A stretch of DNA of 64,000 nt from Octopus vulgaris (lineage: Eukaryota): the NCBI GenBank assembly GCA_951406725.2, contig OX597815.1, forward strand, positions 97,650,001 to 97,714,000, in the 5' to 3' direction. The notes under the pieces were generated by a model, which was not told the DNA's origin, did no database searches, and saw nothing but the letters and a program-made list of their open reading frames with translations. This document shows, piece by piece, positions 1 to 45,530 of this stretch. Positions within the stretch are counted from its first letter, which is position 1. Each line of letters begins with the position of its first letter. A program made the position numbers and the translations under genes.

Positions 1-340
1 AATCTATGGACAACTGCTTCGAAACCTCCAGCTTCTGTATCCAGACTATGAACTCATATTCATACTAATAATAATTGGAGCATAGGATTTGTTAGTAAAT
101 GCTTAAAGGAAGATCTTGATAAAGGGGGAATTTCAGAAAGAGAAATTGACTGGCTGATTCGTACATTACAAGTCCAATCTGTGAATGGAACAGCGAGGAT
201 ATGCAAGACTTTTCTCAAGTTCCAAATGTGAATTTGTTTGTATTAACTAGATCCGAAAGATGGAGCTTTGCATCTTTGTTGGAAACCGGCAACTCCCACC
301 TCAGTGGAAGATTTATATCAATTAAAAAATAAAAGAGACA
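1..340 (+). mobile_element. 3' end of a degenerate RLE-type (R4/Dong-like) non-LTR retrotransposon
   Basis: Frameshifted translation resembles an RLE C-terminus (LQLLYPDYELIFILIIIGA.GFVSKCLKEDL...LIRTLQVQSVNGTARICKTFLKF), followed by an A-rich tail and (CATA)n. A homologous copy lies at 54308-54615. Confidence 0.7.
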
Positions 341-359
341 TACATACATACATACATAT

Positions 360-6102: not shown

Positions 6103-6283
6103 GTTTGGGTATATGTGGTAGCAGCTTACTTATGCGTCAGTTTTATGCTGTTCGTACTAGCTCGCTTCAGTCCTTATGAATGGTATAACCCACATCCTTG
6201 CAACCCAGATTCTGATGTAGTGGAGAACCAATTTACAATTCTCAACAGCCTCTGGTTTACTGTCAGCTCGTTGATGCGGCAAG
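6103..6283 (+). CDS. Kainate-like ionotropic glutamate receptor, internal exon encoding M1, the M1-M2 loop and the M2 pore loop up to the Q/R site
   Basis: Acceptor tttctgttttacAG (AG 6101-6102) and donor G|gtgact (GT 6284-6285). Translation [61 protein letters not shown] is close to vertebrate GluK2 ([33 protein letters not shown]). 181 nt, ends in phase 1. Confidence 0.96.
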
Positions 6284-8729: not shown

Positions 8730-8776
8730 ATCTGATCGACAAGAGTCAGCAAACTCGAAACATCGATGTTTCAGAT
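8730..8776 (+). ncRNA. Minimal type I hammerhead-ribozyme-like motif with variant core (U3-A8 pair, C4)
   Basis: ATCTGA [stem I], TCGACAA [core], GAGT cagcaa ACTC [stem II], GAAA, CATCGATG [palindromic stem III], T T, predicted cut after 8770, TCAGAT [stem I]. All three stems pair perfectly. Confidence 0.65.
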
Positions 8777-22987: not shown

Positions 22988-23884
22988 AGTGAGAATTTAC
23001 AAAAAGAACACGAAGACAGGTGTGTAAACAACAAACATATATATTAGTTTAACGTTCGGGAAGTGAGAAAGTCTTTTACGTTTCGAGCCTATGCTCTTCG
23101 ACAGAAAGGAACACAGAAATTAAAAAAAATTAGAGAAAATTGAAAAGGTTTGGTGGCTAGCGATCTATCATGGCGAATGCCGGTCAGAGGGGTCACACAG
23201 GACAGCGAGGCAGGGGATATAATAAAGTAGTGGTGATCCCAAAACGAAGATGCGGTTGTATGTGAGAGCGTGTATGTCCGTATGGAAGAGGGCTGGTGAC
23301 ATTGACGTGTGCGTGTGTGCATGTGTAGGTGTGTGGATGATGGTGTAGGTGCTGGGAAGTGGTCAGTGCTAGTGTTGCAGAATGGTGTGATGTGGTGTGA
23401 TGTATGGTGGTGTGTGGTCTGGTGTTGTGTTGTGTGGTGGTGTGTGTTGTGGTGGTGTGTGGTGTGAGGTGTGTGGTGCGGTGTTGTTGGGTGTGGGAGG
23501 CGAGAGTGGGGAAAGCAAGGATGAAGTCTAAGGGATAGGGTGGGGATGGGATGGGTTGTATAAGGATAGTGGGGTTGGAATGTGTTTGGGTGGGGTAACG
23601 AGGGAGAGGTGCCGATGAAGGGAGAGGGTGGAAGGGAGAACGTGGGTAGGAGTGAAGAGAGAAATAGGTACCAGAGCAAGAACGGGAGGTGGGTGGGAGG
23701 AAGTAGGTTTGAGAGGAAGGGAGGAGAGAGGAGGAAGGTTAGATGAAGAGGGGACGAGAGTTGAGCCCATATGGTGCAAAGCAGCGAATAGAGAAGATTA
23801 ATCCCTGCTCACGACGAAGCCGGGAGTCTGGATGGCCCTGTGCAAGGATAATCCGAACACAGACAGGTGTTGTAAAGGGCGGCC

Positions 23885-23885
<1 letters not shown>
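22988..23885 (-). mobile_element. 5'-truncated Penelope-like element: GIY-YIG endonuclease C-terminus plus terminal repeat with a hammerhead motif
   Basis: Minus strand about 23880-23739 reads HLSVFGLSLH/(frameshift)QGHPDSRLRREQGLIFSIRCFAPYGLNSRPLFI*, matching the PLE pattern R..RE...I..L....P.GLN. A low-complexity tract and a hammerhead-like motif at 23108-23073 follow; both ends abut (TA)n. Confidence 0.8.
23073..23108 (-). ncRNA. Minimal hammerhead-like motif in the PLE terminal repeat (A6 replaced by U)
   Basis: Minus strand CTTT-CTGTCGA-A-GAGC atag GCTC-GAAA-CG-TA-AAAG, with a palindromic ACGT stem III. Confidence 0.55.
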
Positions 23886-23932
<47 letters not shown>

Positions 23933-24115
23933 AAAATGAGATAGGGGGGAGGGTTATGAGTGTAACCTACTATGGGATATCAGTTATCCAATATACTGCC
24001 AGTGAAGTACCCAAAAGGCTAATGCATAAATGCTTACAATTGCAATGCAATTAGTTCATTTATTGTATTAGATGGGCGAAGGTAAAATGTTTTACCTCAA
24101 AATCATAATACAAGT

Positions 24116-24296: not shown

Positions 24297-25100
24297 AACG
24301 AGGCTAAAGCACGTAGAGTGAAGCCGCTTGGAAAACTTGACCTTGAACGCATGTGCACTTAGAGTTAATGTTCTGGCTCACTTCCGCAGTTTACAACAGT
24401 GCTTGGAACGAAGGTGTGTAGTGTGTCATCGTCGCTTTCACCATGAGAGATAAAGTTGTCATGGCGATACCTGCTCAGAGACCTACGCAGTGTTGTTGAA
24501 CGTATGTGGAGAGGATTGCATGATCCGCACACAAGCGTACGAGCGTTTCAGACATTTCCAAGATGGCCGAAGAAATGTTGATATTGAAGAATGTTCTAGG
24601 AGACCCGCAACAAGCTGAACTGAGAAAAACATCGCAGATGTATGTGCAGCTGTGTGAGGAAATAGTCGAACCATTATCCGTGTGATATTAAAGGCTGTAC
24701 AGACAAGTTACGTTTCAGTTCACACCATTTTCACTGAAGATTTGGGTATGAGACGTGTGTTTGCCAAGTTTGTACCAAAACTGCTTTTAGCTGACCAAAA
24801 ATACTCTCGGGTTTCAGTTGCACAAGTTCTCCTTGATTTTGTCGAGAACGAAGAAGACTTTCTGAAAACTTTGTGTAGGCCTCTGAGCAGATGTCACCAA
24901 GCTTTTGGCAAAATTTGGGGATTCTCTGCTCAGCTTACTCTGTCATGGTCAATGCGACGATTACACGCGACACACCTTCCTTCCAAGCACTGCTGGAAAC
25001 AGCGGAAGTCAGCCAGAACGTTAAAAATTAGTGTGTATGCACATCAGCGTTCAAGATCAATTTGTGCAAAACGCTTTACTCTTCGTGCTTTAGCTTCGTT
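24297..25100 (+). mobile_element. Internally deleted mariner-type DNA transposon with long imperfect TIRs (about 165 bp)
   Basis: Transposase N-terminal remnant VHTIFTEDLGMRRVFAKFVPKLLLADQKYSRV (WVPHEL-equivalent linker). Ends aacgaggctaaagcacgtagagt... and ...actcttcgtgctttagcttcgtt are inverted copies. Confidence 0.85.
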
Positions 25101-25249
25101 ACTCTGACATATATATATATATATATATATATCGTATCAAGCTAAGAAGTACTCCATAGTTCCAGAATGTTCGACTCGAATCAAATATAGAAAACACTTT
25201 AAATCGTTGTTACCCCGACTACTCCAGCCAAAATCAGTAACAGTCTCAT

Positions 25250-34500: not shown

Positions 34501-34742
34501 ACTGTTTTGCTATATTTGTGTATCTACTACATCAGTACTTGACTGTGTTTGTATGTGTGTATATTGGTGTATATATGTATGTGTGTGCGCGCGCGTGTTT
34601 GTGTGTTCTTATTGTATGTAAATACGAAAGAAAGATATAGACTGAACATCGGAATGAAAGGAAGTGATAGATACCGTTTTTTGCATCTCGAACTCCTTGG
34701 AGGCTTCCCTTTATACTTTAACTTACCTTATATTTTTATTAT

Positions 34743-35116
34743 ATAGTGGTTGTATACTGTCAACTTAACGTGACAGTAAGGGAATTACACCACCGCTGTT
34801 TAGCCCTAGGAAGCATCGACGCTTCCTGTCCGCCTCGACACATTTCCTGTGTCCTTATATATTTACGAAGGGGAGACAAATACCCCCAACAGCTAGGCCT
34901 GCATCTAGAGACACGCATGTTTCAGGGTCTTTGCCCATCATCGGTCTAGAGTAGCAGAGGCCTGCTAGCTGAAGGGTATTTGTCTTCCCTTCGTAAATAT
35001 ATAAGGACACAGGAAATGTGTCGAGGCGGACAGGAAGCGTCGATGCTTCCTAGGGCTAAACAGCGGTGGTGTAATTCCCTTACTGTCACGTTAAGTTGAC
35101 AGTATACAACCACTAT
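34743..35116. repeat. Near-perfect inverted repeat with 143-bp arms (34743-34885 / 34974-35116) and an 88-nt structured spacer
   Basis: Arms compared base by base; only one mismatch seen, a G:T that forms a G-U wobble in the sense RNA. Confidence 0.97.
34904..34950 (-). ncRNA. Minimal type I hammerhead-ribozyme-like motif at the apex of the long hairpin
   Basis: Minus strand TCTAGA-CCGATGA-T-GGG caaaga CCC-T-GAAA-CATGCGTG-TC-TCTAGA. GUC triplet with predicted cut between 34910 and 34909; quasi-palindromic stem III; U4 replaced by C. Confidence 0.65.
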
Positions 35117-36379
35117 GTCGCTCCACCACCGTACATATCTCTATGAGATATTTAGAAATTTAATATTTCTGACTATATTTTTATTGTTTTCTATGATTTT
35201 CTTTTTCTCATTTTCCTTCGTACACTTTCGATGCTTCCAGTTGCCGTTCGTCTTTATTACAGATCTCCTGTAATAAATGATCTGATTTTTATAATCTTTA
35301 TTCGCAATCGAAAATTTTAGAAATACTACTCAAGTGCAGTATGTTAATCTTCAAATATAAGTCTTCTATCAGGGGAAAAACTACCTTCTGTTTATATTCA
35401 TTTGACCTAGCACTAAAGTACACTACGACTTAATTGTAATGACTAGTATGAAAACACGGAACTGGACTTATTCAGCAGAAGCCGTAGTATATTTATCTAA
35501 ATGGTTATTTTTTATCACCTCTTATGTATAATACTGCTATCGACATCCCAGACAGTGTGACTGATAGGATATTTTCATCTCTGAACGAAGAATAATGCGA
35601 AAGTTGATTTGCTCACTTTTCTAATGTATTTTATGTTACGTTTTTTTTATGGATAAACTGTTAACCTTTACTTAGCTCAAGAGATTCATCATAGCGCCAA
35701 GAAACTGCGAACGCTATATTTGTGTACACGTATACATATATATGCATATAAATATGTCTGTGTATATATATATATATATATATATGTTTGCGGACGTTTA
35801 CATGTATATGTGTACATATGTAAATGTATGTGTGTACATGTGTGTGTATGCACGTACATACATAAACGCACACATTTTGTGTCAGATTAATGAAAAGCAA
35901 CACAAAAAAAGTACAAGCCACTGAACAGCAGCATATATCAAAACGGATGGTTTCCCATTCCGTTTAAAGTGCCAAATTATTTCCGAACAAGATGCTCGAA
36001 GTTCGTGCAACGTTTACAAATGTGAGTATAATAATGAAAATGTAAATCTGTAACCCTGGCTTTCGGAAACCAACAAAAAGCAACCTAATCCTATGGGAAT
36101 ATATGATAAATGCTTTCAACAAGCGCAAGCCTAAATACGACATTTTTCTCTTTCTATTAGTCTGTCTCTCTCTCCCCCTCTCTCCCTCTGTCTTTCTCTC
36201 TCACTATCACTCACCGTCCCACTCTCTCATGCAGTGTTTCGAAAACAACTCAAACATGATACACATATAGATATGAAAACCTGAATACACACACAGACAT
36301 ACGAATATACGTATTTGTTTGTGTGTATTTAAATAAATGCATATAAATATATACGCTTGAGCGCACAGGCACTCATATA

Positions 36380-37951: not shown

Positions 37952-39041
37952 CAGGGGTTATACAAAATAATGGAAACAACTTAAAATTTCAAACAAATTT
38001 ATTTTAATATGGGGTAGGATTGCCTTTGGTAGTAGTTACAGCTTGAATTCTACGAGGTATGGACTAGTACAAAGTTTGAATTGTTTCCAAAGGAATTTTT
38101 GTTCATTCTTCAGCTAAAACAGTCACCCCTTCTTGTAGTGATGAAGCTGGAGGATATCGACTCCTTACTTGTTTTTCTAAAATGCACCATACATATTCCA
38201 TAGTCTTGGCTATTCATTCTGCCATGAAGGGAAACCACTGGGCCGACGGAATTCCAAGATATAACCCCCAACCCACCCCCGATCATCACAGATCCTCCTC
38301 CATGTTTAACAGTTGGAAGAAGATAGTCTGGGTGCAATGCTTCTTTTGGTTGCCTCTGCCCATATACTCGGCCAGTGGTCGGAAATTAGGCAACGGATGA
38401 GTCGTCCAAGAAAATAACACTTTCCCACAGCTGTAGGGACCAATTCTGTAGATTTTTACTCCACTTTAAACGCTTTGCAACGTTTGCTTTTGAACGTGGT
38501 GGTTTTCTGATTGCTGCCCTACCGGGAAATCCGGCTTTCTGCAGCGCCCGGCGAGCAGATTTTGTGGAAACTGTTTTCTCGCGGTAGTCATTGAGCTCCG
38601 CAGTAATTTTGGGAGCTATATTTTTGTGATCCTTTCTGAAAATTCTCGTAAGAGTCCGACAGTCCCTATCTGAAAATCGTGGTTTTCTTCCGGAGTCTTG
38701 TTTCGACAAGGAGGTTTTCTCTCTTTCTCAAAGGCTGTCATTACTTTCGAGACAGTACTTCTTGGTGCACCAAATATTTCGGCTGTTTTCGTTACGCAAG
38801 CGCTGGCCATAAGAGCACAAACAATTTGACCTCTTTGAAAGTCCGACAGATCTCTCATTTTTATGAATTTTAATTACCTTTTTTCTGATGATATCTGAAA
38901 AGAAACAGCAATTTTATCAAAACATATTAAGCAACATTAATGATGAATCAAAAACCATAAAAATAAACAAGCTTTTGGCGGCTTTATAGATATTTGAAAA
39001 TTATGATGCAAGGTGATTCCATTATTTTTGTCCAACTCCTG
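37952..39041 (-). mobile_element. Tc1-like DNA transposon, near full length, with a frameshifted and partly deleted transposase
   Basis: TIRs TA|caggggttatacaaaataatggaa and ttccattatttttgtccaactcctg. Split ORFs MRDLSDFQRGQIV..., SGRKPRFSDRDCRTL...W..VIFLDDS and PTVKHGGGSVMI. Confidence 0.93.
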
Positions 39042-45312: not shown

Positions 45313-45530
45313 GCTGCGAATTCTCTCCGAGAGCTATTTCTACAAGACTAGTCAGTGGTACGTGGTGGTTTTTCACACTGATCATGATATCGTCCTACAC
45401 TGCCAATCTGGCCGCTTTTCTCACTGTGGAGCGGATGACTTCACCCATTGAGCGAGCAGATGACCTAGCTAAACAAAGTGATATAAAATACGGCACTTTA
45501 TATGGTGGATCAACAATGACTTTTTTCAAG
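45313..45530 (+). CDS. Kainate-like iGluR internal exon: M2-M3 linker, M3 gate and start of the S2 ligand-binding lobe
   Basis: Acceptor attctatttcAG and donor AAG|gtaagt. The first 2 nt complete GGC (Gly) with the phase-1 G of the previous exon. Translation [72 protein letters not shown] includes the invariant SYTANLAAF and the kainate-type GSTMTFFK. Confidence 0.97.

Follow-up and report, generated by a model that had tools for sequence, protein, structure and literature searches.

A probable Penelope-type fold-back insertion of a hammerhead-motif repeat in an octopus glutamate receptor intron, and Tx1-like LINEs located at repeats of this kind

The analyzed stretch of the Octopus vulgaris genome (the window; 64,000 nt, contig OX597815.1, positions 97,650,001 to 97,714,000) contains part of an AMPA/kainate-like ionotropic glutamate receptor gene on the plus strand (receptor matches at E ~1e-31). 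The M1-M2 (pore) exon is located at 6103..6283 (+; Pfam Lig_chan, E 1.5e-15; limits inferred from AG/GT) and the M3 exon with the motif SYTANLAAF at 45313..45530 (+; matches to AMPA/kainate receptors, approximate limits). The intron of ~39 kb between these two exons harbors the hairpin element described here. A repeat search over the whole window was swamped by microsatellites. Two frames at 38080-38873 and 24658-25107 resemble remnants of Tc1/mariner transposases by eye, and a fragment at 23739-23966 (-) is similar, also by eye, to the C-terminus of the abundant Penelope-like element (PLE) ORF in locus L042.

The first-pass annotation had described two arms of 143 bp with a single mismatch, and this holds: 142 of the 143 positions of 34743-34885 and 34974-35116 are complementary, the lone mismatch being G34873/T34986. 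The predicted folds of both strands have energies near -317 to -319 kcal/mol, with z scores of -37 and -40, a stability that was matched by none of 100 shuffled sequences. Since the window aligns with positions ~64-297 (-) and 153-351 (+) of a repeat unit, the element reaches 35172. Its span of 34741-35172 thus exceeds the limits given by the first-pass annotation, which had overlooked a one-sided tail. It consists of a sense copy of the unit at 34741..34974 (-; unit positions ~64-297, BLAST to L027:2038-2389), which has a short 3' terminus and carries the hammerhead, and an inverted, 5'-truncated second copy at 34974..35172 (+; unit positions 153-351, BLAST to the same unit) with a long 3' terminus. 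The tail of ~55 nt at 35117..35172 (+) forms the end of this second copy, and its last 26 nt have 417 exact matches in the genome. An AT-rich target-site duplication of 12 bp flanks the element on the left (34729..34740) and, in identical form, on the right (35174..35185).

Misassembly as the source of the perfect palindrome has a negligible probability. The whole element is not spanned by any short-read contig, but contigs with the unique left and the unique right junction are present in the DNA runs X1, X2 and X4, which bear three organism labels, and an empty-site joint is absent among the joints listed (21 further joints lie beyond these). Moreover, the arms of many older fold-backs of the family have diverged. 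The description of the insertion as young is partly supported: an arm identity of 99.3% is the highest among 22 fold-backs compared, but both junctions occur under three organism labels. Read depth over the element was thousands of times the flank depth, a ratio that does not represent a copy number.

At the apex of the hairpin, the previously proposed type I hammerhead on the minus strand (34904..34950) was confirmed as a motif by helix order, core, GAAA and GUC. Helix I is formed by 34950-34945 paired with 34909-34904. It is followed by the core CCGAUGA (34944-34938), a helix II of 3 bp and the GAAA at 34923-34920. Helix III is self-complementary and the GUC triplet sets the predicted cleavage site at 34910/34909. 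All three helices occur in type I order around the conserved core with one deviation, a C instead of the canonical U at core position 4 (U4C). A hammerhead descriptor gave two matches in the window, of which this one alone is on the minus strand. A search with Rfam models did not recover it, as no hammerhead family was reported at this site even at E<=10. No hammerhead was found among the best 150 of 249 Rfam matches over the window, and the hammerheads of sister families were likewise missed at the gathering score.

The core variant is typical for the family, with C4 being present in 74 of 85 cores. In 17 motifs of this family and its sister families, positions N3 and N8 covary (8 C-G, 7 U-A, 2 U-G, no C-A) and helix II is paired in 51/51 cells. 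Altogether 68/68 cells are paired and double changes occur in 3/4 pairs. Helix I was judged by eye and is not intact in some copies. The 17 motifs were selected by the core pattern, and copies that are related do not count as independent; the invariance of the core bases is therefore partly by construction, and the covariation shows selection on the class of motifs rather than activity of this copy. The minimum-energy fold of the monomer is another structure, from which the hammerhead fold differs by +4.5 kcal/mol. Pairing of helix III with a second copy was calculated as 10 bp and -12.5 kcal/mol, and such an intermolecular helix would be as expected for a dimer-type motif. The unpaired base before helix II, G10.1-C11.1 and the palindromic helix III are shared with the PLE hammerheads described in PMC4209133, as are U3-A8 variants, which occur here in sister families. 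The majority of U4C cores, the helix II of only 3 bp and the long extended helix I differ from the forms presented there. According to the available text of PMC3088659, U4C lowers activity in vitro and still allows viroid infectivity. Weak cleavage is documented for metazoan PLE hammerheads (PMC4209133), and insertion in vitro still took place with ribozyme mutants in the experiments described in PMC11167929. The hammerhead of this family would probably cut tandem transcripts as a dimer, and likely weakly.

For identification of further copies we searched the octopus genome itself (2.8 Gb); 40 of 2,639 candidates were scored, yielding 89 matches. The exact 33-mer of the core has 86 genomic matches, the reversed controls of this sequence and of the terminal 26-mer have 0, and at least 24 loci match the entire fold-back. 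The hairpin thus belongs to a short non-coding repeat that is present in hundreds of copies. Its natural full unit measures 352 nt (L027:2038-2389) and contains no long ORF. Once 10 duplicates among 115 loci had been removed, scoring covered 198 pieces of the unit. Their 3' ends are concentrated at positions 349-352 (100 pieces) and 289-298 (64 pieces), and their 5' ends are scattered. In the 80 insertions that retain the exact core, inversion was seen in 33, a tandem arrangement in 28, both in 12 and a single piece in 31. The proposed rod-shaped element did not stand, because what moves is the 352-nt monomer, and the 143-bp duplex arises secondarily when it inserts; 47 of the 80 insertions are not inverted. 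Two complete units lie head-to-tail in L107, each with its hammerhead, and the sequence common to copies after position 352 equals unit position 1. The native unit already holds an imperfect stem around the hammerhead (z -6.7), and the pivot of the window fold-back is in register with this stem. Units of ~366 nt in tandem were also seen for a sister family in L196 and L198, with a second hammerhead-like pattern per unit.

The ends of the inverted insertions are strikingly regular. From 51 such insertions, 16 were unclassifiable and dropped, and 34 of the remaining 35 have one short and one long end, leaving the tail of ~55 nt on one side only (p~1e-9). PLE insertions are characterized by partial tandems, inverted 5'-truncated copies, a one-sided tail and a (TA)n bias (PMC8557442, as far as its text is available), and it was reported that the PLE cuts both strands, with two start sites of reverse transcription defining the tail (PMC11167929, likewise). 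One-sided tails together with inversion are this published signature, and a retrozyme-type, non-autonomous derivative of a PLE is therefore most likely. The family shares 5' truncation, partial tandems, inverted 5'-truncated partners, AT-rich targets and a hammerhead within the repeat with endonuclease-positive PLEs, as presented in these two sources (PMC8557442, PMC11167929). In contrast to these, the unit has no ORF, an owner PLE was not found among the fetched loci, and the tail is longer, ~55 nt compared to 30-40 nt.

Accordingly worded for the window copy, a PLE protein would have cut both strands of AT-rich DNA, and two cDNAs would have begun at two sites of the RNA, at unit positions ~297 and ~352. 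These cDNAs would then have been joined in the middle of the element, in register with the unit stem at the base of hammerhead helix I, and the near-perfect palindrome would result from this joining in register. The joining step, with both cDNAs coming from the same type of RNA, is suggested by the ends of the copies.

A MITE or fold-back DNA transposon with terminal inverted repeats of 143 bp would also place long inverted arms next to TA and recur as a complete fold-back at the 24 or more loci mentioned above. This origin is extremely unlikely, as fixed symmetric terminal inverted repeats were not found in the family: the ends are asymmetric, the tail is one-sided, pivots vary among loci, tandems occur, most copies are not inverted and the duplication has 12 bp. 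A second explanation takes the copy as the truncated 3' end (pseudo-LTR) of a protein-coding PLE and not as a self-contained non-coding monomer. The insertion architecture would be identical, 31 of the 80 insertions are single pieces, and PLE hammerheads mostly occur as solitary truncated copies in the material described by PMC4209133. However, the sequence shared beyond position 352 is again the start of the unit, L107 contains complete head-to-tail units, and no fetched copy continues into a shared PLE ORF. Flank clustering of the fetched copies gave no shared PLE-type continuation and no autonomous PLE with this terminal repeat, and none of the fetched loci showed the unit joined to an ORF with RT and GIY-YIG between repeats. 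A partner PLE was not found via L080 or by one tblastn search with four loci read, and the single abundant PLE that was checked carries a different hammerhead. L080:2806-3588 (-) contains a GIY-YIG fragment of a PLE in the TA tract of the unit, which looks like a later insertion. We consider the pseudo-LTR origin unlikely. The missing link to a PLE ORF and the complete tandem units make a retrozyme-type monomer the best fit.

Animal non-LTR retrozymes, which are PLE-derived by hypothesis, are likewise non-coding tandem monomers with one type I hammerhead, according to the accessible parts of PMC7761336 and bioRxiv 10.64898/2026.07.22.740005. With 352 nt the unit is longer than the ~150-300 nt stated there, and it differs from these retrozymes in occurring mostly as dispersed monomers and fold-backs. 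The earlier view of the hairpin as a PLE fold-back product or a ribozyme-bearing non-coding retroelement agrees with the architecture of the family. Taken together, the hairpin is probably the insertion of a ~352-nt hammerhead repeat of the retrozyme type, likely copied in trans by a PLE, with the fold-back likely born during insertion.

It had further been suggested that the host pre-mRNA presents a long duplex in the intron after the pore exon. The duplex is indeed predicted on the sense strand, but a link to the pore exon was not found. Co-option of the hairpin for regulation of the glutamate receptor pre-mRNA, as an ADAR or Dicer substrate or in the control of splicing, could draw on this 143-bp duplex, on the highest arm identity of the 22 fold-backs and on the junctions common to three DNA runs. 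Against it, the hairpin is paired with itself, 33 of the 80 family insertions are inverted as well, and the pore exon is 28.5 kb and the next exon 10.1 kb away. In addition, the Q/R codon at 6277-6279 (+) is CGG (Arg) in the genome. CGG is the codon that is made by editing at the Q/R site of vertebrate GluA2. As it is already genomic here, an editing partner is unneeded. Co-option is thus very unlikely, and a role of the hairpin in editing or regulating the receptor gene found no support. Editing of the duplex itself is plausible and would be common to many fold-backs of the family. No RNA runs carrying the element were listed; run X12, whose RNA type is a guess, contains five family-like contigs that are not specific for this locus. 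The host pre-mRNA carries solely the antisense of the hammerhead at 34904-34950. A second hammerhead motif of another family is located at 8730-8776 (+), with U3-A8, C4 and a palindromic helix III. It is in sense orientation within the intron that also harbors the hairpin, and the pre-mRNA would therefore contain it.

The window copy contains no LINE, and junctions between LINEs and the repeat were found at other genomic loci. Two types were distinguished. Type A has 5.4 kb, a zinc knuckle in ORF1 and an APE-RT ORF2, and type B has 1.6 kb and ORF1 only. Both have their 3' ends at position 61/62 of the unit, which is ~33 nt upstream of the core, with duplications of 15-20 bp; over all LINEs at hammerhead targets the duplications range from 10-22 bp. 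When type A loci were collected by their own 3' end, a hammerhead repeat followed directly in 17/30 (15 times this repeat, 2 times others), a count that includes the query and one duplicated pair. For type B this was the case in 23/30 (13 this repeat, including the query, and 10 others), and two further B loci form a stack with A, with one duplication in between.

As a second approach LINE copies were picked by RT similarity, and 40 of 150 matches were fetched. A hammerhead core is present 29-38 nt downstream in 22 of these 40, compared to a background of 31/11,620 (0.27%) for the core pattern at that distance. This share exceeds the >20% of copies which, in the text available of PMC4494074, defines target preference. 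The nearer LINE clades account for 21/28 copies with a hammerhead, and the others are four stacks, two starts of U2 snRNA genes and one broken end. The distant clade has a hammerhead in 1/12 and none in 11/12. L208, L210 and L211 of this distant clade have a common target repeat of another kind, in which no hammerhead was detected. Head-to-tail LINE arrays with a long open ORF2 and a period of ~5.3 kb were observed in G000 at C9:59207143-59250096, C2:73044753-73067335 and C5:29181923-29203752; the two junctions read contain a short spacer only.

The LINEs have an ORF1 zinc knuckle, an ORF2 with APE, RT and a zinc-binding domain, and an RT of the L1 group. We take these to be Tx1-clade traits, and the label Tx1-like used here relies on this assumption. 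The closest solved relative of the ORF2 is human L1 ORF2p (E 1e-62; R2 1e-25), and no named Tx1 reference was among the RT matches. Target-specific LINEs of the Tx1 clade include Tx1L in Tx1D, Tx1-Mar in Mariner-N4 and Keno in U2, and the octopus LINEs are similar to those described in PMC4494074 in the ORF1 CCHC knuckle, the APE-RT ORF2, stacking at one site, and the use of other mobile elements and U2 as targets. They differ in their target, a hammerhead repeat, which they follow through families that are only 57-78% alike. A hammerhead or PLE target of Tx1 LINEs was not found in the literature searched, outside of which lie Repbase and subscription journals, and a term search of the available text of the octopus repeat paper PMC13282606 returned no such target.

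The hammerhead targets comprise this repeat and several divergent families. Targets 57-78% alike (shuffled sequences 51-53%) hold LINEs which are 72-99% alike, for example 73%/99% and 60%/89%. The truncated LINEs L136 and L129 have the duplication and the target on both sides. Near-identical LINEs in different targets, the two-sided targets of L136/L129 and the greater divergence of targets than of LINEs in most pairs indicate independent insertion. That LINE and repeat diverged together from a single ancestral composite is disfavoured by the same excess of target divergence, bearing in mind that resolution of the LINE tree within clades is poor. L136/L129 and the stacks separated by one duplication speak against hitchhiking as the sole cause. 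Hitchhiking does occur, in L118/L123 and L175, and the truncated copies L121, L134 and L154 beside this repeat have no upstream target. In the inverted pairs L118 and L123 a LINE end is present on either arm, and a short unit end is combined with a long one. From these ends we infer that some composites of LINE and repeat were recopied by PLE machinery. Two LINEs (L178:6145-6338 and L183:6164-6357) are located at the first bases of U2 snRNA genes, and their 5' ends retain a short piece resembling the hammerhead-repeat target. These data point to Tx1-like LINEs inserting site-specifically at hammerhead repeats.

The frequent physical linkage would also fit a repeat that is mobilized by the LINE as a SINE-like partner. 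This is highly improbable, since the LINE interrupts the unit with a duplication of its own, also inserts in U2 genes and unrelated sites, and is found upstream of only about 7/86 core copies. It is possible, though rather doubtful, that the LINE lineage is a specialist parasite of hammerhead repeats which uses the ribozyme: read-through RNA would be cut ~65 nt past the tail-less 3' end, and the defined end would pair with the next target. If so, near-identical LINEs could track different ribozyme families, switch to U2 upon a match of the first bases, and be carried along when PLE machinery copies the repeats.

The hairpin itself is likely ordinary PLE-type debris, an insertion scar of a known kind. 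The repeat probably represents a new retrozyme-type family, in which a non-coding monomer moves by PLE-type insertion. Its one-sided tails in 34 of 35 insertions are a clean genomic fit to the model of two starts and cuts in both strands, which was obtained in vitro with a lizard PLE. Targeting by LINEs would add a target class for Tx1-like elements, a known habit with a new variant of target. It may also serve as a test of what purpose PLE hammerheads fulfil, and of whether 3' read-through RNA steers the insertion of LINEs.
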